32,602 nucleotides of DNA from Chloroflexota bacterium (GTDB lineage Bacteria; Chloroflexota; UBA6077; JACQUR01): assembly GCA_016210245.1 (NCBI GenBank), contig JACQUR010000108.1:1-32602 (forward strand). Direction: 5' to 3'. A program made the translations under genes and the position numbers. Below, one piece after another: positions 1,587 to 27,730 of the stretch (its first letter is position 1; each line of letters starts with the position of its first letter). The notes under the pieces are model-generated. The model was not told the origin of the DNA and did no database searches. It saw only the letters and a list, made by a program, of their open reading frames with translations.

Positions 1587-1674
1587 GATTTCGGATTTCG
1601 GATTTCGGATTTCGGATTGAGGAGGCGTGAGGCCCGGTCCCCAATCCGAAATCCGAAATCCGAAATCCGAAATC
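1587..1674. repeat. Inverted heptamer array (GATTTCG)4 ... (CGAAATC)4 forming a 33-bp stem
   Basis: Arms 1587-1619 and 1642-1674 are reverse complements; AAGGAG RBS follows at 1676. Confidence 0.95.
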
Positions 1675-1686
1675 CAAGGAGTGGAC

Positions 1687-3969
1687 ATGGCGATAGGACA
1701 GGCGGTCCCGATGGTGGACTGGTGGTCGCGCGTGACCGGAGAGGTGGCCTACGCCCTCAACCTGAAGCTGCCGGGCATGCTGCACGCGCGCGTCTTGCAC
1801 AGCCCGCACGCTCACGCGCGGCTGGTGCGGGTGGACACCTCGAGGGCCGAGCGGCTGCCGGGGGTCGCGGCGGCCATCAGCCGCAACGACCTGCTCGGGC
1901 AGGACCAGTTCTCCCCGTACTACGGCCCGGTCATCCGCGACCAGACGCCGCTGGCGCTGGACCGGGTGCGCTACGTGGGCGAGCCGGTGGCGGCGGTCGC
2001 CGCGGTCGACGAGGACACCGCGGCCGAGGCGCTGGACCTGATCGAGGTGGAGTACGAGGAACTGCCGGCTGTCTTCGATCCGGAGGCCGCGCTGGCGCCC
2101 GGGGCGCCGCTGCTGCACGAGGGGCCGCGGCGGGTCATTCCCGCCCGACTCGAGGTGCGGGCGCGGTCGAAGGAAGGGACGAACATCATCCACCTGTTCA
2201 CCCAGCGCAAGGGCGACGTGGAGCAGGGGTTCCGCGAGGCGGACCTCATCATCGAAAACGTGTACACCAGCCCGCCGGTGGCGCACGTGCCGATGGAGCC
2301 CCACAACGCCATCGCCCAGGTGCGGGACGGCCGGATCACCATCTGGACATCGAACCAGAGCCCGCACCTGGTCCAGATGCAGATCGCGGACATCTTCCGC
2401 TTGCCGACGGCCGACGTGCGGGTGATCGTCTCCACCCTCGGTGGCGGCTATGGCGGCAAGATCAACGCCAGGATCGAGCCCATGGCCGCGCTGCTGGCCT
2501 GGAAGGCGCGGCGGCCGGTGCGGCTGGCGCTGCGGCGCAACGAGGAGTTCCTGGTCTACACCCAGCACGCCGTGAAGGTCCGGCTCAAGACGGGGGTGAA
2601 GCGCGATGGGACGCTGGTGGCCCACGAGGCTACCTGCTACTACAACGGCGGCCCCTTCGCCGACAGCTCGCCCAACCTGATCCAGCGAGCCTACGCGTCC
2701 ACCGGACCGTACCGGGTACCCAACCTCAAGACGGACTCCTACGGCGTCTACACTAACGCCCTGCCGGCAGGAGCCTTCCGCGGCTACGGGATCACCCAGG
2801 TCGCCTGGGCGCACGAGCTCCAGATGGACCTCATTGCCGACCAGCTCGGGATCGACCCGCTCGAGCTGCGGCGCAAGAACGTGCTGCACGAAGGTGAGCC
2901 CTTCACCACGGGCGAGCCGTTCCCCGAGTGCCACTACCCCGAACTACTGGAGGAAGCGGCTCGACGGATCGGCTGGGGCGAGGGGCCGCTGGTGGTGCGC
3001 GAGGGCACCAGGATCCGCGCCAAGGGCCTGAGCTGCATCGTCAAGGGCGCCGCGACCGTGCCGTCCTCGGCGATCGTCAAGCTGAACGGCGACGGCAGCC
3101 TGAACGTGCTGGTCAGCAGCGTGGAGATGGGCCAGGGGGCGCAGACGGTGCTGGGCCAGATCGCGGCCGACGAAGCCGGGCTGCCGTTCGAGCGAGTCCG
3201 GGTGTCCGAGCCCGACACGGCCGTCACCCCCTTCGACCACATGACCGCCGCGAGCCGCACGACCTTCACCATGGGCACGGCCGTGCGCTACGCCGTCCAG
3301 GATGTGAAGCGGCAACTGCTGGAGCTCGGGGCCGACCTGCTGGAGGTGTCCAGAGACGACGTGGTGCTGGAGGATGGGCGGGTGAAAGTGCGCGGCGCGC
3401 CCGATCGCTCGCTCGGCTACGGCGACGTGGTCCGCCGGGCGCTGCGCGGCAACCTGCTGGGCCACGGCTACTTCGGGCCGACGACGCACCTGGACCTGGA
3501 GACCGGCCAGGGAAAGGGATCGGCGCAGTGGCACCCGGCGGTGGTGACGTGCGAGGTGGAGGTCGACACGGAAACGGGCAAGGTGGAGGTGACGCGCCTG
3601 CACGCCTGCCTGTACGTCGGGCGGGCCATCAACCCGCGCTTCTGCGAGCTGCAGGTCGAGGGCAGCGCCCTGTTCGGACTGGGCCAGGCGCTGTTCGAGG
3701 AAGTGGTCCTGGACACCGACGGTCGCATCGCCAATCCCAACCTGAGCGACTACATGATCCCGTCGTTCGAAGACGTGCCCCACGAGTTGACGACGTACGT
3801 CCTCGAGTCGGCACATACCAAGGAGGTCCACGGGATCGGCGAGACCGCGGTCCCACCGATTCGGCCGGCCATCGGCAACGCGGTCAACCGAGCGCTGGGC
3901 ACGCGCATCTTCGATCTGCCGCTTACCCCGGAGAGGGTGCTGCGGGCGCTGCAGGAGCAGCGTGGCTAG
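1687..3969 (+). CDS. Xanthine dehydrogenase-family molybdopterin-binding large subunit (copy 1)
   Basis: Motifs SPHAHA, VRYVGEPVAAV, HVPMEPH, LGGGYGGK, GAFRGYG, VEMGQG, TAASRT, HGIGE. ATG 1687 has an AAGGAG RBS; the ORF-track N-terminus from 1627 is translated repeat. Confidence 0.92.
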   Translation: MAIGQAVPMVDWWSRVTGEVAYALNLKLPGMLHARVLHSPHAHARLVRVDTSRAERLPGVAAAISRNDLLGQDQFSPYYGPVIRDQTPLALDRVRYVGEPVAAVAAVDEDTAAEALDLIEVEYEELPAVFDPEAALAPGAPLLHEGPRRVIPARLEVRARSKEGTNIIHLFTQRKGDVEQGFREADLIIENVYTSPPVAHVPMEPHNAIAQVRDGRITIWTSNQSPHLVQMQIADIFRLPTADVRVIVSTLGGGYGGKINARIEPMAALLAWKARRPVRLALRRNEEFLVYTQHAVKVRLKTGVKRDGTLVAHEATCYYNGGPFADSSPNLIQRAYASTGPYRVPNLKTDSYGVYTNALPAGAFRGYGITQVAWAHELQMDLIADQLGIDPLELRRKNVLHEGEPFTTGEPFPECHYPELLEEAARRIGWGEGPLVVREGTRIRAKGLSCIVKGAATVPSSAIVKLNGDGSLNVLVSSVEMGQGAQTVLGQIAADEAGLPFERVRVSEPDTAVTPFDHMTAASRTTFTMGTAVRYAVQDVKRQLLELGADLLEVSRDDVVLEDGRVKVRGAPDRSLGYGDVVRRALRGNLLGHGYFGPTTHLDLETGQGKGSAQWHPAVVTCEVEVDTETGKVEVTRLHACLYVGRAINPRFCELQVEGSALFGLGQALFEEVVLDTDGRIANPNLSDYMIPSFEDVPHELTTYVLESAHTKEVHGIGETAVPPIRPAIGNAVNRALGTRIFDLPLTPERVLRALQEQRG

Positions 3970-4126: not shown

Positions 4127-5335
4127 ATGAAGGTATTCCCAGCTCGGCTCCTGACGCTGCTGGCGGCGCTGCTCCTCGCGGCCTGCGCGCCCGCGGCGGC
4201 GCCCAGCCCCACCGTAGCGCCTGCCAGGCCCGCGCCGACGGCCGCGCCCGCGCAACTGACGGCCGCTCCGGCCAGGCCGACCGAGAAGCCGGCCGCGACG
4301 GCGGCCGCGGAGAAGCCGGCGGCCAAGCCGACCGAGAAGCCGGCTGCCAAGCCCGCCTTCGATGAGCAGGCGGTGGCCGACTTCTACCGGGGCAAGACCG
4401 TCAAGATCATCGTCACCTTCCCGCCGGGCGGGAGCTTCGACGTCAACTCGCGCCTGATGGCCAAGTACATGTCGAAGCTCATCCCTGGCAACCCCACGAT
4501 CATCGTTGAGAACATGCCGGGCGCGGCTGGCCTGCTGGGCACGAACCACGTGTACAACGTGGCGCCTCAGGATGGCACCGTCATCGGCGTCACCAACGGC
4601 AGCGCGACGGTGCTGGAGCAGCTCTTCGGCGGGCAGGCCGTCCAGTACGACGCCAGGAAGCTGCTGTACCTCGGCGCTCCGTTTCCATTCAGCTACGTGC
4701 TCATCGTGGGCAAGGCTTCCGGCTTCAAGCAGTTCGACCAGGTCCTGGGCCCGAGCGCCAGGCAGATTGTCCTGGGCGGCAGCGCCCCGGGCTCGGCCAC
4801 CTACGACGCGCCCATCCTGGTCCGTGAGATGCTGGGCGGCAACGTGAAGCTGGTTCCGGGCTATCCGGGCGTGCCCGAGCGCGCCCTGGCGATCGAGCGA
4901 GGCGAGATCGACGGCGCCTTCGAGGTCTGGGAAGGCGCCAAGGTAGCGATTCTGCCGAAGCTGCAGGGCGGAGAGCTGCTACTGCTGGCCCAGTTCACCG
5001 ACGCCCCGCTCAAGGACCTGCCGAACACTCCGACCGTGCTGAGCTTCGCCAGGAGCGAGGAACAGCGCCAACTGCTGCGCCTGGGTATCGTCGTGCCCGG
5101 CCAGTTCTCGGTCCAGTATTTCCTTGCCCCCGGCGTGCCCGGGGACCGCGTGCAGGCGCTGAAAGCCGCCTGGGCGAAGACCACGCTCGACCAGGAGTAC
5201 CTGGCCGAGGCGAAGAAGGCCAATCTGGAGATTCAGCCGCTCAGCGGCGAGCAGCTCCAGAAGCTGGTCCTGGAGTTCCTGGACATGCCGGCCGACCTGA
5301 AGACGAAGTTGAAGAACGCGATGCGTCCAAGTTGA
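4127..5335 (+). CDS. Tripartite tricarboxylate transporter substrate-binding lipoprotein (TctC/Bug family)
   Basis: Lipobox LAAC, Pro/Ala/Lys linker, then FYRGKTVKIIV-PPGGSFD, IIVENMPGAAG, APQDGT, AIERGEIDG. GGAGG precedes ATG 4127. Confidence 0.88.
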   Translation: MKVFPARLLTLLAALLLAACAPAAAPSPTVAPARPAPTAAPAQLTAAPARPTEKPAATAAAEKPAAKPTEKPAAKPAFDEQAVADFYRGKTVKIIVTFPPGGSFDVNSRLMAKYMSKLIPGNPTIIVENMPGAAGLLGTNHVYNVAPQDGTVIGVTNGSATVLEQLFGGQAVQYDARKLLYLGAPFPFSYVLIVGKASGFKQFDQVLGPSARQIVLGGSAPGSATYDAPILVREMLGGNVKLVPGYPGVPERALAIERGEIDGAFEVWEGAKVAILPKLQGGELLLLAQFTDAPLKDLPNTPTVLSFARSEEQRQLLRLGIVVPGQFSVQYFLAPGVPGDRVQALKAAWAKTTLDQEYLAEAKKANLEIQPLSGEQLQKLVLEFLDMPADLKTKLKNAMRPS

Positions 5336-5360
5336 GGTTCGGGATGCTCGAACGGTGGGC

Positions 5361-5417
5361 TTTCTGGCGATGCCGGCAGATATCAAGTCCAGGCTGCAGC
5401 GGGTGATGCGCCCGTGA
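5361..5417 (+). pseudogene. Remnant 3' end of a second TctC/Bug paralog
   Basis: Reads FLAMPADIKSRLQRVMRP*, versus FLDMPADLKTKLKNAMRPS* at the end of 4127..5335. Its TGA overlaps the next GTG (GTGA). Confidence 0.65.
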
Positions 5418-7897
5418 AGCAGGCGCTGGCCAATCGGGATGGGGGAAGGGCGTCCTTCGACAGGCTCAGGACGAGCGTGGGGCCGGTCGGGCAGAGCGTG
5501 CCGGTGGTCGACGCCTACGAGCGCGTCACGGGGCAGGTGGGCTATGTGCTCAACGTCGAGCTGCCCGGCATGCTGGCCGGGCGGATCCTGCGCAGCCCGC
5601 ACCCCCACGCCCGAGTGCTCCGCGTCGACGCCTCGCGCGCCGAGCGCCTGCCGGGCGTCGTGGCTGTCCTGACCCGGGCGGACCTGGAGCACCCGGAGGC
5701 CCTCACTCCCCGCTACGGGCGGATGCTCTGCGACCAGACCATCGTGGCGGTAGACCGGGTGCGCTTCGTCGGCGACCCGGTGGCGGCGGTAGCGGCCGTG
5801 GACGAGGAGGTGGCCGACGAAGCGCTCGACCTGATCGAGGTCGACTACGAGCCGCTGCCAGCCGTGTTCGAGGTGGACGAGGCGCTGCGGCCGGACGCGC
5901 CGCTGCTCCACGAGCCCCGGCCGGAGGTGCAACCCGGGCTCGGGCACCTGGCCGGGGCCGTCGCCGGAGCGAACAACCTGTGCGGCCACTTCAAACTGCG
6001 CCGAGGCGATGTGGAGCAGGGCTTCGCCCAGGCGGACTTCGTCTTCGAGGACACCTTTCGCTCCCCCGCCGTGCAGCACGTGTCGCTCGAGCCGCACGTC
6101 ACCGTTGCCCAGTACGAGGGCGGCCGGCTCACCCTCTGGTCCTCTACCCAGATGCCCCACGCGATCCGAGCCCAGATGGCGACGATGTTCCACCTGCCGC
6201 AGTCGAAGGTGCGGGTCATCGTCCACACCCTGGGCGGCGGGTATGGCGCCAAGGGCTCGCTCCGACTCGAGCCGATCGCCAGCCTGCTGGCCTGGAAGGC
6301 GCGGCGGCCGGTCAAGATCGTCCTGCGGCGTGCGGAGGAGTTCGTCACGGTCACCAAGCACGCCGCGACTGTCCACGTGAAGACCGGGGTGATGCGGGAT
6401 GGGACCCTCGTGGCGCGACAGATGGCTACCTACTTCAACACCGGCGCCTACGCCGACATCGGGCCGCTCGTCGCCCGCAACGGCGGCCTGGCCATGGTCG
6501 GCCCATACCGGGTCCCGCACGTGAAGATCGACTCGTACGCGGTCTGGACCAACCTCGTTCCAGCCGGGGCGTTTCGCGGCTTTGGCGTGCCGCAGGCGGC
6601 CTGGGCGTACGAGAGCCAGATGGACATGATCGCCGAGCGGTTGGGCATGGACCCGCTCGAGCTGCGGCGCCGGAACGTGGTCCACGACGGCGATCGCCAC
6701 CCGAGCGGCCAGGAGCTCGAGGACCTGCACTTCGACGAGCTGATCGAGGGTGCGGTGGCGTCCGTCGCCTGGCAGCCGGGCGACGCCTGGTGGCTGAGGC
6801 AGGCCGCGGCGGGTGGGCAGGATGAGAGCAGGTCTCGGCAGGCCCGCCCTTCAGGGCGGCAGCCCAGAGAGGCCGCCGCCCTGAAGGGCGGGCCTGGGAG
6901 CGCCGCGGAGCCGGGTGGGCAGGGCGGGCGAGAGACCAGCAAGCGCCGGGGGAAGGCCGTGACCGTCATCATGAAGTCCACGCTCACGCCGTCGACCTCC
7001 ACCGCCTCGGCCAAGCTGAATGAAGACGGCAGCCTGGACGTGGCCACCAGCAGCGTCGAGATGGGGCAGGGCGCCACGACGGCGCTGGCCCAGCTCGCCG
7101 CCGAGGCCGCGGAGCTGCCTTACCAGCGCGTGCGGGTGTCCGAGCCCGACACCGACGTGACCCCTTACGACCAGCAGACCAGTTCCAGTCGCACCACCTT
7201 CTCGATGGGCACGGCCGTAGCCCAGGCGGCCCGGGAGGTCAAGCGCCAGGTCCTGGAGCTGGCGGCGGGGCTGCTGGAGGTCGGGGTGGACGACCTGGTG
7301 GCGCGCAACGGCAGGGTGGAGGTCCGCGGGGCACCCGAGCGCGGACTCGACTACGGCGAGGTGGTGCGCAAGGGCCGGCGGGGCAACCTGCTCGGCCAGG
7401 GCGCCTGCGTCACGAAGGGCGGCCTGGACCCCGAGACAGGACAGGGCTTCGCCTCCGTCCACTGGCACCAGGCCACAGCCGCGTGCGAAGTCGAGGTCGA
7501 CACCGAGACCGGGAAGATCGAGGTGCTCAAGTTCGACTCCGGGGCGTTCGCGGGTAGGATGGTGAATCCCCGGCTGTGCGAGCTGCAGACCGAGGGGAAC
7601 ACCCTGTTTGGCCTGGGGCAGGCGCTCTTCGAGGAGATGCGGTACGAAGACGGCCAGGTGGTGAACCAGAACCTGGCCGACTACATGATCCCGTCCTTCA
7701 AGGACGTGCCTGGCGACCTGGTCAGCTCGATCCTGGAACGGGCGGAGAGGGGCGAGGTCCACGGCATCGGCGAAACCTCGCTCCCCCCAGTGATGGCGGC
7801 GATCGCGAACGCCGTCTACAACGCAGTAGGAGTGCGCATCACAGACCTGCCGCTCACGGCGGAGAAGGTGTTAGCAGTGCTGAGTGCTGAGTCCTGA
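5414..7897 (+). CDS. Xanthine dehydrogenase-family molybdopterin-binding large subunit (copy 2), with an in-frame repeat-derived insertion
   Basis: Motifs SPHPHA, VRFVGDPVAAV, HVSLEPH, LGGGYGAK, GAFRGFG, VEMGQG, SSSRT, HGIGE; clear paralog of 1687..3969. Start is GTG 5414 (GTGA overlap) or GTG 5477. Confidence 0.92.
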   Translation: MKQALANRDGGRASFDRLRTSVGPVGQSVPVVDAYERVTGQVGYVLNVELPGMLAGRILRSPHPHARVLRVDASRAERLPGVVAVLTRADLEHPEALTPRYGRMLCDQTIVAVDRVRFVGDPVAAVAAVDEEVADEALDLIEVDYEPLPAVFEVDEALRPDAPLLHEPRPEVQPGLGHLAGAVAGANNLCGHFKLRRGDVEQGFAQADFVFEDTFRSPAVQHVSLEPHVTVAQYEGGRLTLWSSTQMPHAIRAQMATMFHLPQSKVRVIVHTLGGGYGAKGSLRLEPIASLLAWKARRPVKIVLRRAEEFVTVTKHAATVHVKTGVMRDGTLVARQMATYFNTGAYADIGPLVARNGGLAMVGPYRVPHVKIDSYAVWTNLVPAGAFRGFGVPQAAWAYESQMDMIAERLGMDPLELRRRNVVHDGDRHPSGQELEDLHFDELIEGAVASVAWQPGDAWWLRQAAAGGQDESRSRQARPSGRQPREAAALKGGPGSAAEPGGQGGRETSKRRGKAVTVIMKSTLTPSTSTASAKLNEDGSLDVATSSVEMGQGATTALAQLAAEAAELPYQRVRVSEPDTDVTPYDQQTSSSRTTFSMGTAVAQAAREVKRQVLELAAGLLEVGVDDLVARNGRVEVRGAPERGLDYGEVVRKGRRGNLLGQGACVTKGGLDPETGQGFASVHWHQATAACEVEVDTETGKIEVLKFDSGAFAGRMVNPRLCELQTEGNTLFGLGQALFEEMRYEDGQVVNQNLADYMIPSFKDVPGDLVSSILERAERGEVHGIGETSLPPVMAAIANAVYNAVGVRITDLPLTAEKVLAVLSAES
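6839..6896. repeat. Intragenic REP-like palindrome with 22-bp arms
   Basis: 6839-6860 (CAGGCCCGCCCTTCAGGGCGGC) and 6875-6896 are exact reverse complements; same family as 16906-16971 and 30366-30570. Confidence 0.9.
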
Positions 7898-22186: not shown

Positions 22187-23404
22187 ATGGGAAGCAGCAT
22201 GGCCCGAACGCCGCTGATGGCCGAGCGGGTCGCGAACCCGCCCGGCTCGCCGTCCGGGCTGTTCTCACAGGCGTTCGTCTTCGTGTGCGTCACCACGTTC
22301 CTGGGGTACGCGCAGTACTCGCTGCTCACGCCGGTCCTGCCGCTCTTCATCAAGGACCACGGCGGCTCGGCCAGCCTGGTCGGCCTCGTCACCGCGGCGT
22401 TCAGCGTCACCTCCTTCGCGCTGCGCCCATTCATCGGGCGCGCGGTGGACACCTGGAGCGCCCGGGGCGTGATGGGCCTGGGCACGCTGGCGATGGGGCT
22501 GGCCAGCTTCGGCTACCTGTTCTACGACACCGTGCTGCTGCTGCTCGTCCGCTCCATCCACGGCACGGGCTGGGCGGCGTTCAACACCGGCGGCAAGGTG
22601 CTGCTCTCCACCTCCGCGCCCGCGGAGCGGCGCGGGGAGGCCTCGGGGTACTACTCGATGGCTCAGGGCGTCGCGACTGCCCTGGTGCCGGCCATCGCCC
22701 TGTGGGTCCTGGGCCTGGTGGACTATGCGGGCGTCTTCGCCCTCTCGGCGGTCGGGGGACTGATCGCTACCCTCACCAGCCTGGCCGTGCCCGCGCAGCC
22801 GCACCCGCAGTCGGATGGGCCGCGCGAGTCGTTCTGGGCTGGCCTGGTGGAGCGGTCCGCGCTGCTGCCTTCGGTGCTGGAGTTCCTCACCAAGCTGTCC
22901 CAGCCCGCGGCGGCGGTCTTCGTCCCGCTCTACGCCACCTCCCGAGGGCTGCCGGTCGAATCGCTGGTGTACTACTACCTGGGCTACGGGCTGGTCGGCA
23001 TTGCGGCGCGCGGCGTGCTGGGCAGCCTGTCTGACCGCATCGGGCGAGGCCGGACGATCGCCATGGGCACGACGCTGGGCGCCGTGTCGCTGCTGCTCAT
23101 GGCGCTGGCGCACGACATCTACCTTCTGACGCTGGGCGGGATGATCTTCGGGCTGGGCACGGCCGCCTTCGCGCCCTCGGTCATGGCCCTGGCGATCGAC
23201 CTCGCGCCGGCCAGGCGGCGCGGGGCGGCCATGGCGACCTACTCCATGGCCTTCCAGCTTGCGCAGGGGGCAGGGGGCCTCCTGTGCGGCGTGTTGATCG
23301 ACCTGGCCGGGTTCGAGGTCATGTACCTCACCATGGCAGTTGCTTCCCTCTCCGCACTGCTCGTGGTGTTCCAGTACCGAAGCACCCTGAGCCCCGAGCA
23401 CTGA
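22187..23404 (+). CDS. MFS transporter (copy 1)
   Basis: About 12 TM helices, motif A variants GRAVDTWSAR and GSLSDRIGR, RRGEA/RRGAA. Start could also be ATG 22199 or later. Confidence 0.88.
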   Translation: MGSSMARTPLMAERVANPPGSPSGLFSQAFVFVCVTTFLGYAQYSLLTPVLPLFIKDHGGSASLVGLVTAAFSVTSFALRPFIGRAVDTWSARGVMGLGTLAMGLASFGYLFYDTVLLLLVRSIHGTGWAAFNTGGKVLLSTSAPAERRGEASGYYSMAQGVATALVPAIALWVLGLVDYAGVFALSAVGGLIATLTSLAVPAQPHPQSDGPRESFWAGLVERSALLPSVLEFLTKLSQPAAAVFVPLYATSRGLPVESLVYYYLGYGLVGIAARGVLGSLSDRIGRGRTIAMGTTLGAVSLLLMALAHDIYLLTLGGMIFGLGTAAFAPSVMALAIDLAPARRRGAAMATYSMAFQLAQGAGGLLCGVLIDLAGFEVMYLTMAVASLSALLVVFQYRSTLSPEH

Positions 23405-23435: not shown

Positions 23436-24599
23436 ATGTCTACCGAGGTGGAGAAGCACCACCACCACGGAGCCCGCCTGGGCGATCCGGAGATCAGCGG
23501 CGACAAGTGGTGGGCGAACGAAGGAGAGCGCCTGGTCCAGCTCTACCAGGCCGGCGCCGTCATGGCCAGCGGAGAGCGCGCCGCAGCCGAGCGGGAGCTG
23601 GCGACGCGCGAGCGGCGGCGGAAGACGCCGGTGGTGATCAAGCGGGAATCGATTCAGTTCGAGCCCTCGTCCTACAAGGGCGTCCACATCGGCTACATCG
23701 TCGCCCCGCACCGGGGCATCGAGGTGCGCAACATCCAGTTGGAGGTCCACCGGCTGCTGCCAGGGGCGCACACGGAGGCGCACCGGCACGGCGAGGCGGT
23801 CTGCCACGTGCTCAACGGCCACGGGCGCAGCCTCGTCGAGGGCAAGGAGTACGAGTGGGGGCCGCACGACTCGCTGCACATCCAGAAAGGGGCCTGGCAC
23901 CAGCACCTCAACGCCAGCGCAAGCGAGCCCGCCCATATCCTGGTGGGCAAGCCGGCGCCCATCCTGGAGCACCTCGCGCCCCACGCCATGGTCTACAAGG
24001 GCGACAGCTTCAGCGACATGCCCGACGACTTCATGCCCGAGCACCCCTTCACCCACGAGCGCGTGCCGGTGGGCTACGTGGGCGGCGAGAAGTGGATGAG
24101 CCACCTCCAGCTTGCCACCCACGAGCGCCTGGCCGAGCTGGAGCGGCGGCGGCGCGAGGCGCGGGTGCTGCTCAAGGCCAGCGAGGCGGTGATCGAGCGC
24201 TCCGAGCACAAGGGCGACTGGAAGGTGGGGCTGATCGACGAGTACCTGGGCTTCGACAACCGGATCCTGGCCATGTACATCCACCAGATGCCGCCCAGCA
24301 GCTACACCGAGACCCACAAGCACGGCGAGGCGATCGTGTACGTCTTGAGCGGGCGGGGCTACAGCATCGTCGAGGGCGAGCGCTACGACTGGCAGGCCGG
24401 CGACTGCATCTTCGTCCAGCCCGGGGTGTGGCACCAGCACTTCAACAGCCATCCCCAGCAGGTTTCGCAGCACCTGGCCCTGTACGTCGCGCCGCTGCGA
24501 GACCGCATCGTCCGCGGCGCGGAGTTCGTCGACTGGAAGACCGAGCCCGACTACCAGTCCCCAGCCGTGGAACTGCCCGCCGGCGAATGGTGGAAGTAG
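23436..24599 (+). CDS. Bicupin protein, gentisate 1,2-dioxygenase-like ring-cleavage candidate
   Basis: Two cupin motif sets: HRHGEA...GAWHQH and HKHGEA...GVWHQH; GAGGAGG RBS. Confidence 0.75.
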   Translation: MSTEVEKHHHHGARLGDPEISGDKWWANEGERLVQLYQAGAVMASGERAAAERELATRERRRKTPVVIKRESIQFEPSSYKGVHIGYIVAPHRGIEVRNIQLEVHRLLPGAHTEAHRHGEAVCHVLNGHGRSLVEGKEYEWGPHDSLHIQKGAWHQHLNASASEPAHILVGKPAPILEHLAPHAMVYKGDSFSDMPDDFMPEHPFTHERVPVGYVGGEKWMSHLQLATHERLAELERRRREARVLLKASEAVIERSEHKGDWKVGLIDEYLGFDNRILAMYIHQMPPSSYTETHKHGEAIVYVLSGRGYSIVEGERYDWQAGDCIFVQPGVWHQHFNSHPQQVSQHLALYVAPLRDRIVRGAEFVDWKTEPDYQSPAVELPAGEWWK

Positions 24600-24654: not shown

Positions 24655-24749
24655 GAGAGACGGGATGCACCACGGAGACACGGAGACACGGAGTTTTCTT
24701 ATGAGAACATCTCCGTGTCTCCGTGTCTCCGTGGTGCATCCCGTCTCTC
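24655..24749. repeat. Palindrome with 39-bp perfect arms containing (CACGGAGA)n octamers
   Basis: 24655-24693 and 24711-24749 are exact reverse complements. Confidence 0.92.
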
Positions 24750-24805: not shown

Positions 24806-25399
24806 GTGGCTAGTGATGCCGCCCAGGCGTATGCGCGGGCGTGCGTGGCCCAGGGCGAGGCCGAAGTGGAGCGCCTGCGGGCGGAGGTCCGCGCCAGCGC
24901 GGAGCGAGTGACGCAGCTCTCGGCCCAGTTGCGAGCGGCGAGCCGTGCCATCCACGCCGCCCGCACGCGCCTGGGTGCCCTGGAGGCGCTGCTGGCAACC
25001 GAGCAGGCGCGCTTCGAGCAGGAGTTCGAGCAGCTCGCCACGTTTCCAAAGGTGCGCGGCGTGGAGATGGACGGTGCGCTCATCCGCGTCCTGACCGACA
25101 CCATCTACCTCGACCACCTGGGCCGGCGCTATCGCATCGGGGAGTTCGCGCTCGAGCTGGACCTCGATCGGGGCATCCGCACGATCAACCTGAGCAACAC
25201 GGGCCAGAAGAGCGGATGGGACCACCCCCACGTCCAGGCGGGGCTGCCCTGCCTGGGCAACCTGCGCGACGGCTTCGAGAAGCTGCTGGGCGAGTACCAG
25301 GTCGTCCCGCTGGTTTCCATGCTCATCCAGTTCCTCGAGACCTTCAACCCGGACACCGCGTACGGCCCCATCGACCTCTGGGAGAAGGTGGCAACGTGA
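24806..25399 (+). CDS. Coiled-coil + prokaryotic E2 (ubiquitin-conjugating)-like domain protein
   Basis: N-terminal heptad-like helix of about 70 aa, then beta-strand-like segments and HPHVQAGLPCLGN, resembling the UBC HPN...C active-site signature, followed by helices. Stop overlaps the next start (GTGA). Confidence 0.62.
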   Translation: MASDAAQAYARACVAQGEAEVERLRAEVRASAERVTQLSAQLRAASRAIHAARTRLGALEALLATEQARFEQEFEQLATFPKVRGVEMDGALIRVLTDTIYLDHLGRRYRIGEFALELDLDRGIRTINLSNTGQKSGWDHPHVQAGLPCLGNLRDGFEKLLGEYQVVPLVSMLIQFLETFNPDTAYGPIDLWEKVAT

Positions 25400-25965
25400 T
25401 CTTCCAGCCTGCCGATGCGGGTGGGGACGAGCCCCCGCCCTACGAGCCCCACCTGGCCTTCACCGCGCCAGCCTGGCGCAAGCTGGTGCTCTACGTCCTC
25501 AACTGCCCGTTCGAGATCGGCGGCCTGGGCCTGGTGGAGGCGCGCGGCCAGGACTTCCTGGTCACCGATGTGCTGCTGGTGGAGCAGGACGTGAACGACA
25601 TCGCCACCCGGCTGGACAGCGGCGCGGTGAGCGCGCTCCTGCTCCAGTTGCTCGAGTCCGGGCGCGACCCCGGCGAGCTGAAGCTGTGGTGGCACAGCCA
25701 CGCCCACGAAGCGCCCTTCTGGAGTGGCGTGGACGAGCAGACCATCGAGCGCTTCCAGAACGACTTCATGCTCTCAGTGGTCAGCAACCACGAGCTGCGC
25801 TTCCTGGCCCGCCAGGACCACTACGCGCCGCGCCGGACGACCTGGGTCTGGGTGGACAAACCGTCCGACGGACTGGAGTCCAGTCCCGAGGAGGTCGAAG
25901 CGGTCCGCGCCGAGATCGCCGCCAGGACGCGGCACGTGCCACGCGATCGGACCCGGATCTTCTGA
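25396..25965 (+). CDS. JAB/JAMM (MPN+) zinc metallopeptidase
   Basis: Upstream Glu (FEIGGLG) and exact H-x-H-x7-S-x2-D spacing (WWHSHAHEAPFWSGVD). Start GTG 25396 overlaps the upstream TGA; 189 aa. Confidence 0.85.
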   Translation: MIFQPADAGGDEPPPYEPHLAFTAPAWRKLVLYVLNCPFEIGGLGLVEARGQDFLVTDVLLVEQDVNDIATRLDSGAVSALLLQLLESGRDPGELKLWWHSHAHEAPFWSGVDEQTIERFQNDFMLSVVSNHELRFLARQDHYAPRRTTWVWVDKPSDGLESSPEEVEAVRAEIAARTRHVPRDRTRIF

Positions 25966-25966
25966 C

Positions 25967-27187
25967 ATGGCGGCGCCCGCGCCAGGGACCAGGCCGGCCG
26001 GGGGCTCCAGAGCGGCGCGCGAGCCGCTCTGGAGCCCCCCGTTCCTGCTCATTTGCGGCTCGCAGTTCCTGAGCTACGCCAACAACGTGATGCTCCACCC
26101 GGTCTTGCCACTCTACCTGGCCAGCCTTGGCCAGACGCCCGCCTTCGTTGGCCTGACCGTGGCCGCTTTCAGCGTCACCTCCTTCGCTCCCCGCCCGCTG
26201 GTAGGCCAGGGCGTCGATCGCTGGAGCGCGCGCGGCGTGTACGTGCTCGGGGCGCTGGCGCTCGCTGCGTCCAGCTTCAGCTACCTGCTGCCCCTCGTGG
26301 CCCTGCTGCTGCTCATGCGCACCGTCCACGGCCTCGGCTGGGCCGCAGTCAACACGGCCGGCGTCACGATCGTCTCCGAGACGACGCCCGCCAGCCGCCG
26401 CGGCGAGGGCGTCGGGTACTTCGGCATGACGCGCGGCATCGCGACGGGCCTCCTGCCAGCGCTGGGCGTCTGGCTCGTCGCGGGCACAGGCTTCCCCTTG
26501 ATCTTCGTCCTGTCCGGCCTGTTCGGTCTCGGCGCGGCGTGTACCGCGGCCATGGTGCCGACCGCGCCGCGTGCGCGGCAGGCCGAGTCGGGCGGCGGCT
26601 TCTGGAGCAACCTGGTCGAGCCGCGGGTTGCCCTGCCGGCGACCCTGCGCGTCCTGCTCAACACCACCCACCCGATCACCACGGCCTTCGTCGCGCTCTA
26701 CGCCCGGGAGCGGGGCATCCAGATCGAGGACTTCTCGTTCTACTACCTGGCCAGCGGCTTCGCCATGGTCGGCGCCCAGTCCCTGGCCGGATTCTCCGAC
26801 CGCTGGGGACGGGCGCCGCTGATCGCCGTCGGCTTCACCGCCAGCACTCTTGGCCTGGCCAGCATGCTGTGGGCCTCGGCGCTCCTGCCGCTCGTGCTGG
26901 GCGGCGCGCTGTGGTCGGCCGGGGTGGGCCTGCTGGAGCCGGCGCTGCTGGCGCTGGCCATCGACAAGGCCCCGCCCAGCCACCGCGGCGCCAGCATGGC
27001 TACCTACACGGCCTCGTTCCAGGTCGGAACCACGATCGGCGGACTGGTGTGGGGAGTCGCCATCGAGCAGGTGGGCTACAGTGGGATGTTCCTCGGAGCG
27101 ATCGCGGTGCTCCTGGCCGGGCTGGTCCTGCTGGCCGCGAACTGGGAGTCGGCCGGCGGGCGGGGGCTCAGCCAAGGAAAGACGTAG
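25967..27187 (+). CDS. MFS transporter (copy 2)
   Basis: Paralog of 22187..23404 (AAFSVTSFA, HGxGWAAxNT, MATY); ATG lies 1 nt after the JAB stop. Confidence 0.88.
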   Translation: MAAPAPGTRPAGGSRAAREPLWSPPFLLICGSQFLSYANNVMLHPVLPLYLASLGQTPAFVGLTVAAFSVTSFAPRPLVGQGVDRWSARGVYVLGALALAASSFSYLLPLVALLLLMRTVHGLGWAAVNTAGVTIVSETTPASRRGEGVGYFGMTRGIATGLLPALGVWLVAGTGFPLIFVLSGLFGLGAACTAAMVPTAPRARQAESGGGFWSNLVEPRVALPATLRVLLNTTHPITTAFVALYARERGIQIEDFSFYYLASGFAMVGAQSLAGFSDRWGRAPLIAVGFTASTLGLASMLWASALLPLVLGGALWSAGVGLLEPALLALAIDKAPPSHRGASMATYTASFQVGTTIGGLVWGVAIEQVGYSGMFLGAIAVLLAGLVLLAANWESAGGRGLSQGKT

Positions 27188-27253: not shown

Positions 27254-27538
27254 TCACTCCCACAGGCGCTCGCGGGCCACGAAGAGCAGGTCCGGCTGGA
27301 CCACCATGATCTCGCTGAGCAGCACGTCGCACGGCGCTATGAGCACCTTGCCCAACCGCTGCTGCCGCACGTGGCGATCCAGCCGGACCGCGAGATTCAA
27401 CACCACGCTCTGGTGGCCCGTGCTGGGAACCGGCGTTACTTCCAGCTCGCCTTCGAGCAACTCATACCGCTTGCCGTCGTCCGGAAGCTGGACGTAGTCC
27501 GCGTAGGTCAGGATGACCCGCTCCGGCTGGGTAGCCAC
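27254..27538 (-). pseudogene. Truncated Uma2-family (PD-(D/E)XK) endonuclease
   Basis: LTYADYVQLPDDGKRYELLEGEL...HQ...VVQPDLLFV is the typical Uma2 N-terminal half; it stops after 94 aa, before the PDLVVEILS segment. Confidence 0.75.
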
Positions 27539-27615
27539 CACACACCTCGCACCAAAGCGAAGCCAACGTGGGATCTGCATGACGTTGTGAGTGCCTGCTC
27601 GCGGAGAGGGACGTT

Positions 27616-27682
27616 CACCACGGAGCCACGGAGCCACGGAGCTTTTTCTCAGAAGACTCCGTGGCTCCGTGGCTCCGTGGTG
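27616..27682. repeat. Palindrome with 26-bp perfect arms containing (CACGGAGC)n octamers
   Basis: 27616-27641 and 27657-27682 are reverse complements; sister of 24655-24749. Confidence 0.9.
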
Positions 27683-27730
27683 CGCGTCTCCTCACGCGCG
27701 AAGCCATGAGGGTTTCACCCTGGCTTTAGT

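Follow-up and report, generated by a model that had tools for sequence, protein, structure and literature searches.

This study concerns a pair of overlapping genes in a 32,602-nucleotide stretch of DNA (the window, 32.6 kb), which is the entire contig C10 (JACQUR010000108.1) of a Chloroflexota metagenome-assembled genome (MAG; assembly GCA_016210245.1, 547 contigs, 4.41 Mb, 74.6% complete). The first open reading frame (ORF1) encodes an E2-like protein (E2L) and the second (ORF2) a predicted JAMM peptidase of the JAB type. We consider it likely, at a probability of about 75%, that the window holds a truncated copy of a four-gene cassette, in which a gene for an MFS transporter stands in place of the genes for an E1 enzyme and a ubiquitin-like protein (Ubl). 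The copy is regarded as truncated because related loci with enough flanking sequence keep the E1, and mostly also the Ubl. The E1-less, Ubl-less state of the window is most simply read as a lineage-specific truncation and no new type of module, and the main interest lies in the parent cassette to which the window locus led. The three genes concerned are as follows.

24806-25399, plus strand: ORF1, E2-like protein (E2L), GTG start, 197 residues
25396-25965, plus strand: ORF2, JAMM/MPN+ (JAB) metallopeptidase, GTG start, 189 residues
25967-27187, plus strand: MFS2, transporter (Pfam MFS_1, 3.2e-42), at the position where the relatives have the E1 and Ubl genes

The four-gene cassette in related loci

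The close E2L family is small, with 37 proteins in a set of 5.8 billion. We compared 17 distinct related loci, all of which had been retrieved by E2L similarity. Their sources were two Chloroflexota MAG loci and one Rubrobacter MAG locus (genome contigs), three loci from a genome search and twelve metagenome contigs; the twin locus L002 was left out of further analysis. An all-versus-all comparison of six-frame ORFs revealed two extra conserved genes, and hidden Markov models (HMMs) built from them were scanned across all loci. The E2-like gene is present in all 17 loci. A ThiF-type E1 of about 220 residues adjoins the E2L-JAB pair in 14 of them (L001, L003, L014-L018, L021-L025, L027 and L028), and in the three loci with no visible E1 (L019, L020 and L026) the contig edges fall where the E1 is expected. 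A Ubl was found in 12 of the 17 loci, 11 by HMM and one by eye as a divergent GG-ending ORF in L015, and the remaining five end too early to show it. On these counts, together with that of the bicupin gene described below, the natural unit is a Ubl, a mini-E1, a coiled-coil E2 and a JAB protein, usually with a bicupin. This unit is apparently an undescribed variant of the bacterial Ubl-E1-E2-JAB systems.

The cassette E1 belongs to the ThiF family (PF00899, 4e-23) and consists of a single domain with no extra domain. Its alignment contains a G-[VA]-G-G-[IL]-G-S loop and an invariant Cys in C-[TA]-A-[QR]-A, and it is the smallest E1 seen beside a true E2-like partner. In L001-type loci it is a separate, divergently transcribed gene. 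The cassette Ubl is a beta-grasp protein of about 70 residues with the C-terminal region ...IP[RL]IKGG, and seven of the nine complete Ubls carry 2-26 extra residues beyond the GG. Its sub-threshold Pfam matches are all to beta-grasp Ubls (Ub-Mut7C 1e-3, ThiS 7e-3, SAMP2 0.03). The cassette is rare and patchy, being present in 5 of the 401 genomes of the phylum that were sampled and in 2 of 61 relatives, counting the source genome; its hosts are Chloroflexota, one Rubrobacter MAG and unbinned metagenome contigs. A search started from the phylum of G401 covered the same genomes and yielded no further loci.

Two of the related loci showed peculiarities of their own. The divergent cassette of L015 (G340:C16) encodes a 430-residue tandem E2L (6485-7795, minus strand), in which the N-terminal copy is UEV-like, without the Cys, and the C-terminal copy retains HPH..C. 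Downstream of it lie the JAB, the E1 and an ORF of about 90 residues ending in VVGG (4881-5177, minus strand), and no bicupin is nearby. In L014, from one Chloroflexota genome, a PIN-domain gene (6843-7274, plus strand; PF01850, 2e-14) separates the bicupin gene from that of E2L.

Absence of E1 and Ubl from the window and the assembly

The HMMs of the cassette E1 and Ubl gave no match among all six-frame ORFs of at least 40 residues in the window, and among the 25 window ORFs scanned with Pfam there was no ThiF, Ubl, CD-NTase or known effector. Because the E1 and Ubl genes are absent from the locus, the local module is incomplete and unable to start the cascade alone. Neither gene had an ortholog in the assembled 4.41 Mb by tblastn or HMM, a genome-wide search that had been proposed together with the original prediction for this DNA. 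The best E1 matches reached 34-42 bits, against 340-420 for orthologs, and the best Ubl match 21.6 bits, against 80-128 for orthologs.

The weak genome-wide matches belong to other systems. On contig C347 of the source genome (G000:C347:4137-7067), a MoeB-like E1 (4137-5351), a Ubl ending in AGGGVA and a Prok-JAB protein (73.8 bits) lie within 3 kb, and this looks like a sulfur-carrier cluster of the CysO/MoeZ/Mec+ type, of the housekeeping kind. A 429-residue protein elsewhere in the genome (G000:C202:9732-11027; L007 1375-2664, minus strand) has an unrecognised N-terminus of about 160 residues followed by a ThiF domain (PF00899, 8.8e-21); it adjoins a HEAT-repeat protein and may belong to another E1-based system. 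A remnant of an E1 inside or after MFS2 was also sought by tblastn and HMM and none was found, the match on C10 at 25685-26044 being an alternative-frame echo of the JAB gene.

The ATG of MFS2 at 25967 lies 1 nt past the JAB stop codon (25963-25965). This junction is spanned with zero differences by independent Logan contigs (for example 25018-26236 in X2), found in 4 runs that all belong to one groundwater study and possibly include the source sample. Since such contigs span it, the JAB-MFS2 junction is real and no assembly artefact of the MAG. MFS2 shares 42% identity with its upstream paralog MFS1 and is therefore not a fresh duplicate.

The E2-like protein and the JAMM peptidase

The segment WDHPHVQAGLPCLGN of ORF1 reads H140-P-H142-V, five residues and C149-L-G, which makes an HPH-x6-C motif within W-D-H140-P-H142-V-Q-A-G-L-P-C149-L-G-N. 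H140, P141, H142, C149, G151 and N152 are invariant in 33 of 33 close homologs and conserved to 90% or more in 81 diverse relatives, down to about 28% identity. The AlphaFold2 model of full-length ORF1 (33 homologs) has a pLDDT of 95, and the domain-only model (81 diverse relatives) one of 97. Residues 2-78 are modelled as one long helix, which is a probable coiled coil; it is followed by a beta-meander, the HPH loop, Cys149 and the helices 151-162 and 166-177. In this model the HPH-x6-C149 site directly precedes helix 151-162. We take this site to be the counterpart of the HPN..C site of E2 enzymes, a comparison based on E2 sequences and on the order of secondary-structure elements, not on a superposition. 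The probable role of the long helix is dimerisation of the E2 or that of a targeting arm.

In Foldseek searches against PDB, the top matches with sensible geometry were UBC/UEV proteins at TM 0.4-0.51. They comprised UBE2S (the best at full length, E 0.06, probability 0.91), Ubc13 (TMq 0.51), Ubc2b (TMq 0.50) and the UEV domain of Tsg101. We regard ORF1 as E2-like because its Cys is conserved, the best sensible folds are UBC/UEV and the relatives adjoin an E1, a GG-ending Ubl and a JAB. The assignment of a UBC-like domain is thus weak statistically and strong by motif and gene context, and the conserved HPH..C motif is much stronger evidence for the E2 identity than the fold statistics.

The second protein is a predicted JAMM peptidase. 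Its putative zinc site, E40, H100-S-H102, S110 and D113, forms an intact JAMM motif (E...HxH-x7-S-x2-D), of which E40, H100, H102, S110 and D113 are all invariant in 16 orthologs. The match to Pfam Prok-JAB (E 1.7e-3, 18.7 bits) is under the cut-off of 25, and the weak phmmer matches in PDB all point one way (CSN5 0.012, Rpn11 about 0.1). The two genes overlap by 4 nt, GTGA, at 25396-25399, and JAB translation is probably coupled to that of E2L through this overlap.

Neither gene looks decayed, as judged from the sequence, and the catalytic residues are all present. ORF1 deviates at 4 of 62 highly conserved columns, always conservatively; the other members deviate at 0-9, except for a single outlier that does so at 27. 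In a tree of 16 E2L rows, the end branch of the window protein (0.37) equals the median, and the protein is placed among those of E1-bearing loci.

The original prediction, which had been made from the letters of the DNA and its ORFs, described much of this correctly. The two genes overlapping at GTGA with HPHV-x5-CLG in the first were confirmed from the ORFs and the sequence; the coiled coil agrees with the long AlphaFold2 helix, and the intact JAMM site with the five invariant residues. The junction at which it placed an MFS paralog 1 nt after the JAB stop is now also spanned by the Logan contigs, and its statement that 32 kb hold no E1, Ubl, CD-NTase or effector agrees with our Pfam and HMM scans. 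The E2-like nature of ORF1 was likewise borne out by the Cys, the folds and the neighbours in the relatives, and the two nearby molybdoenzyme subunits that it mentioned are of the XDH type (1627-3969 and 5414-7897).

Bicupin and metabolic context

The gene order in the window is bicupin, hairpin, E2L, JAB and MFS2, and the further features of this part of the window are as follows.

23436-24599, plus strand: bicupin, two Cupin_2 domains (Pfam Cupin_2, 6.7e-23)
22187-23404: MFS1, MFS paralog of MFS2
24655-24749, no strand: hairpin 1, perfect 39-nt arms, a dispersed, REP-like repeat 3' of the bicupin gene and 5' of E2L
27592-27706, no strand: hairpin 2, a copy of the hairpin 1 family, 3' of MFS2

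A bicupin ortholog adjoins the cassette in 7 of the 17 loci (L001, L003, L014, L016, L019, L025 and L027) and in the window, and three different gene orders and orientations occur among the seven. L015 and L022 have no bicupin in their flanks, and a further eight contigs end too soon to show whether one is there. The tightest partner of the pair is the bicupin and not the molybdoenzymes. Both of its cupin domains have His/Glu metal motifs, and its nearest solved relative is gentisate 1,2-dioxygenase 3bu7 (1.1e-17, across one domain). In the bicupins of L001 (11557-12792) and L019 (1966-3099), which form one subclade, the His ligands of the N-terminal cupin have been lost (HRHxE to IRDYE or ARENE); the site of the C-terminal cupin does not vary among the eight bicupins aligned. 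We rejected the bicupin as a Cap2-style substrate that is conjugated through its own C-terminus, as the C-termini are not Gly-terminated and are poorly conserved. Co-folding of E2L and the bicupin, run without controls, gave a median score of 0.20 against a mark of 0.32, which speaks neither for nor against a complex.

The flanks were long enough to read in the window, L001, L003, L014, L016, L019 and L022, and catabolic or transport genes were found in all seven. A luciferase-like monooxygenase is near the cassette in L001, L003 and L016, NMT1-type binding proteins with ABC permeases in the window, L014, L016 and L022, XDH-type Mo enzymes in the window, L001 and L022, and UbiD in the window and L001. 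L022 further has an isochorismatase-family hydrolase, an alpha/beta hydrolase and an SDR protein as neighbours, L016 and L019 have Amidohydro_2, and L003 has ornithine cyclodeaminase-like proteins and an asparaginase. The family names suggest that the neighbouring gene set resembles one for heteroaromatic-acid catabolism.

In the window itself, the Pfam scans of the 25 ORFs identified three UbiD genes, the two XDH-type molybdopterin-binding subunits, a TctC-like protein, five NMT1-type binding proteins, two ABC permeases, two MFS transporters, the bicupin, a Uma2 fragment, an ABM protein and a GH63-like hydrolase. There was no obvious XDH small or medium subunit among the ORFs scanned. The region upstream of the pair (102-22176) is a dense cluster of UbiD paralogs, XDH-type large subunits, TctC-like and NMT1/SsuA-type proteins and ABC permeases. 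The E2L-JAB-MFS2 block is flanked on both sides by copies of the hairpin, whose arms are composed of CACGGAGN repeats, with 86 arm matches in the 4.4-Mb genome; the Logan depth at the hairpins jumps to about 1,900x, against about 15x. A 127-residue ORF at 27254-27637 (minus strand) matches only positions 2-81 of 172 of the Uma2 endonuclease profile, and it may be a truncated gene adjoining the second hairpin.

The wider E2-like family

A phmmer search over 1.84 billion representatives returned 1762 clusters at E <= 1e-3 and 448 at E <= 1e-10. Since these 1762 representative clusters are covered by no Pfam model, the E2-like family is a sizeable annotation blind spot. Many of its proteins have 400-850 residues with the domain at the C-terminus (including P0047, P0061 and P0063), and the N-terminal regions of these forms are unannotated and partly hydrophobic. 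Pfam gave no useful match on 10 long members, and a homolog search restricted to longer proteins returned none. The language-model neighbours and the top BFVD fold matches of E2L are uncharacterised phage proteins of 420-490 residues. A scan of viral contigs with alignment A5 found no E2L relative, and tblastn of P0044 against phages and of ORF1 against plasmids gave nothing. Prok-E2_B (PF14461) sequences, sought for a comparison of profiles, were absent from 301 genomes of the phylum and from 14 control genomes.

Proposed function and alternative explanations

Gene content, motifs, synteny and the lack of E1 and Ubl on the contig and in the assembly are observations, whereas we infer the E2 chemistry, the conjugation target and any residual function of the remnant. 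The cassette might work as follows. The JAB would trim the tail of the Ubl and expose the GG; the E1 would then adenylate the GG terminus, possibly with formation of a thioester on its invariant Cys, and the Ubl would be moved as a thioester onto Cys149 of E2L. The Ubl would finally be conjugated to a target, and the JAB could also act as an eraser that reverses the conjugation. The bicupin or a pathway enzyme is the leading candidate for this target, the bicupin because of its linkage to the cassette. We suggest only tentatively, as a possible and by no means probable scenario, that the parent cassette is a genuine ubiquitination-like pathway that serves metabolism and not defence, that it tags or regulates the adjacent bicupin, an enzyme of the ring-cleavage type, or other heteroaromatic catabolic enzymes, and that the E2L and JAB of the window are under selection without a linked E1 and Ubl. 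If this is true, such selection implies either a Ubl-independent role at the bicupin or a trans-acting partner. A four-gene Ubl cascade repeatedly tied to a bicupin in catabolic and transport clusters of Chloroflexota and a Rubrobacter MAG would be a candidate for ubiquitin-like regulation of bacterial metabolism.

A recently orphaned remnant is one of three states that we considered for the pair in the window, and the loss of E1 and Ubl in the window lineage is the parsimonious reading. Several points weigh against this reading or against the identities on which it builds. An E1 and a Ubl may exist off the contig, because the genome is 74.6% complete in 547 contigs, and the intact ORF1 and ORF2 are easier to reconcile with continued selection than with a dead relic. 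The tree near the window is an unresolved polytomy and is midpoint-rooted, so that a derived loss is parsimony and not proof. As to ORF1, the Foldseek E-values for the E2 fold are 0.06 at full length and 0.2-1.1 for the domain alone. None reaches 1e-3, for which reason the E2 assignment is only suggestive on the fold statistics alone. ORF1 had no match at E <= 1 to Pfam UQ_con or the families Prok-E2_A to E, phmmer and profile searches against PDB sequences gave coiled-coil matches only, and searches of Pfam, NCBIfam, PADLOC and PHROGs returned nothing but coiled-coil noise. The conjugation target of the cassette is a candidate only.

The alternatives differ in where the missing partners are sought and in what the cassette does. 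The cassette could be complete in the organism, in which case orthologs of the mini-E1 and the Ubl would lie in the quarter of the genome missing from the assembly, and E2L and JAB would work normally with them in trans. The incompleteness of the MAG, the full set of catalytic residues, the lack of excess changes at conserved columns, the E2L end branch of typical length and the already separate, divergently transcribed E1 of L001-type loci are all consistent with this. We nevertheless think it rather unlikely, as the 4.41 Mb searched contain neither ortholog and the E1 lies directly beside the pair in 14 of the 14 loci that show one. It is very improbable that the orphan E2L and JAB borrow a housekeeping E1 of the MoeB/ThiF type and a sulfur-carrier Ubl of the MoaD/CysO type, an idea for which we found no positive evidence. 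The genome does encode the MoeB-like E1 on C347 (4137-5351), and GG-ending beta-grasp proteins are present on C277, C347 and C234, two of them with tails. However, the MoeB-like E1 on C347 is accompanied by a Ubl and, 1 kb away, a Prok-JAB of the same set, which therefore needs no outside peptidase, and the GG-ending Ubls of the genome score just 15-22 bits against the cassette Ubl HMM. The relatives with available flanks moreover retain a dedicated E1 and Ubl, which argues for a specific E1/Ubl pairing.

Other explanations concern the parent cassette. It may belong with the sulfur-carrier systems of the QbsCDE or CysO/Mec+ type and, instead of conjugating proteins, provide a thiocarboxylate for a small-molecule step of the neighbouring pathway, with the Cys of ORF1 as a persulfide or acyl relay. 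The ThiS/SAMP-like Ubl, the minimal ThiF-type adenylation domain of the E1, which has no rhodanese domain, and the surrounding enzymes and transporters with no defence genes among them agree with such a role. Trimming of a tail by a JAB is also typical of sulfur-carrier systems (QbsD, HcyD, Mec+). We still judge this explanation distinctly unlikely: sulfur-carrier systems are not known to have a UBC-like partner, and the HPH-x6-C just before a helix and after a beta-meander mimics the HPN..C site of E2 enzymes. Alternatively, the cassette might act against phages in the manner of Bil or type II CBASS, and the metabolic genes around it would then be incidental. Phage proteins do occur in the wider E2L family, the distribution of the cassette in the phylum is patchy, and the PIN-domain gene adjoins the cassette in L014; passages of PMC10557695 and PMC11601596 moreover describe all characterised bacterial E1/E2/JAB systems as defence systems. 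On the other hand, 7 of 17 loci show the linkage to the bicupin, in three gene orders, catabolic or transport neighbours surround the cassette wherever the flanks could be read, and the phage and plasmid collections gave no match. The PADLOC 2.0.0 defence models, in which the presence of Bil models was unchecked, matched the pair only through a generic JAB (E 0.024) and coiled-coil noise. An anti-phage role therefore seems quite improbable to us.

Returning to the truncated cassette, we find that the reduced relic considered in the original prediction fits, since the relatives carry the E1 and Ubl and the window does not. The self-standing E2 and JAB module without E1 and Ubl that was offered beside it disagrees with the E1 in 14 of 17 loci, the other three being cut, and the Ubl in 12 of 17. 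The proximity of molybdoenzymes had been taken as a clue, in whose place the bicupin emerged as the partner. The prediction had also reasoned that homologs lying in complete operons, together with a catabolic context unique to this genome, would point to a decayed insertion; the relatives with enough flank do have the E1, but the catabolic context is not unique. Its interpretation is thus supported for the E2-like protein, the JAMM peptidase, the relic and the metabolic setting, and is not supported for an E1/Ubl-free type of module or for the borrowing of MoeB and MoaD.

Comparison with known systems

Type II CBASS, Bil and Bub are the bacterial E1/E2/JAB systems characterised so far, and according to PMC10557695 and PMC11601596 all such systems are placed in anti-phage immunity. 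Among known systems, BilABCD (Type I, formerly '6D'; Type II, formerly '6C/CEHH') comes closest to the cassette. The cassette of the relatives has the same four roles, namely a Gly-ended Ubl with a removable tail, an E1, a Cys-bearing E2 and a JAB, and likewise no E3 gene. However, the E1 of BilABCD is a multidomain IAD-AAD-CYS protein in the portions of PMC11601596 and PMC10557695 that describe it, whereas the cassette E1 is a single ThiF domain of about 220 residues. The Bil E2, as portrayed in part of PMC10557695, has no coiled-coil N-terminus and combines its Cys with a downstream His, in contrast to the HPH-x6-C of E2L. Bil is anti-phage, whereas the cassette adjoins a bicupin in catabolic clusters, and unlike Bil the window copy has neither E1 nor Ubl.

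Type II CBASS with Cap2 and Cap3 has an E2 and a JAB without a free Ubl and is in this respect superficially like the window. However, Cap2 is an E1-E2 fusion that conjugates the C-terminus of a CD-NTase, whereas ORF1 has 197 residues and no E1 domain, the window has no CD-NTase and the relatives have a free Ubl. Bub (6E/DUF6527) uses a Ser-based E2 and a DUF6527 protein; ORF1 has an invariant Cys, and DUF6527 gave no match in the Pfam scans of the window or the related loci.

The archaeal SAMP/UbaA/HvJAMM1 system resembles the cassette in its small ThiS/MoaD-like Ubl ending in GG, its minimal E1 and its JAMM protease, and part of PMC4443979 ties the SAMP system to the regulation of a metabolic enzyme. 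SAMPylation works without an E2, whereas the cassette always has a dedicated UBC-like protein. The CysO-MoeZ-Mec+ and QbsCDE sets, which also lie beside metabolic genes, similarly unite a GG-ending beta-grasp protein with a ThiF-type E1 and a JAMM peptidase, but they have no E2-like protein and the cassette has one. The E1 of the CysO/Qbs sets usually has a rhodanese domain, as given in rows 4b-4c of Table 1, a part of Iyer et al. 2006, and a set of the CysO-MoeZ-Mec+ type is present separately in the source genome, on C347. Eukaryotic and archaeal UBC E2s such as UBE2S and Ubc13 appear to match the topology of the E2L model, with a helix, a four-stranded meander, an HP[N/H] loop, the Cys and two helices in order. 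They differ from it in a TM of only 0.4-0.5 with no sequence-profile match, in HPN versus HPH and in the first helix, which in E2L is lengthened to about 78 residues. Full-text searches of the literature found no paper that links these features, and in passages of PMC1779556, PMC11601596 and PMC10557695 neither a cupin nor a coiled-coil E2 belongs to any operon type, although supplementary operon tables, which lie beyond those texts, might list such loci. The operon types 6a-6e, as defined in part of Iyer et al. 2006, likewise include none with a cupin or a coiled-coil E2.

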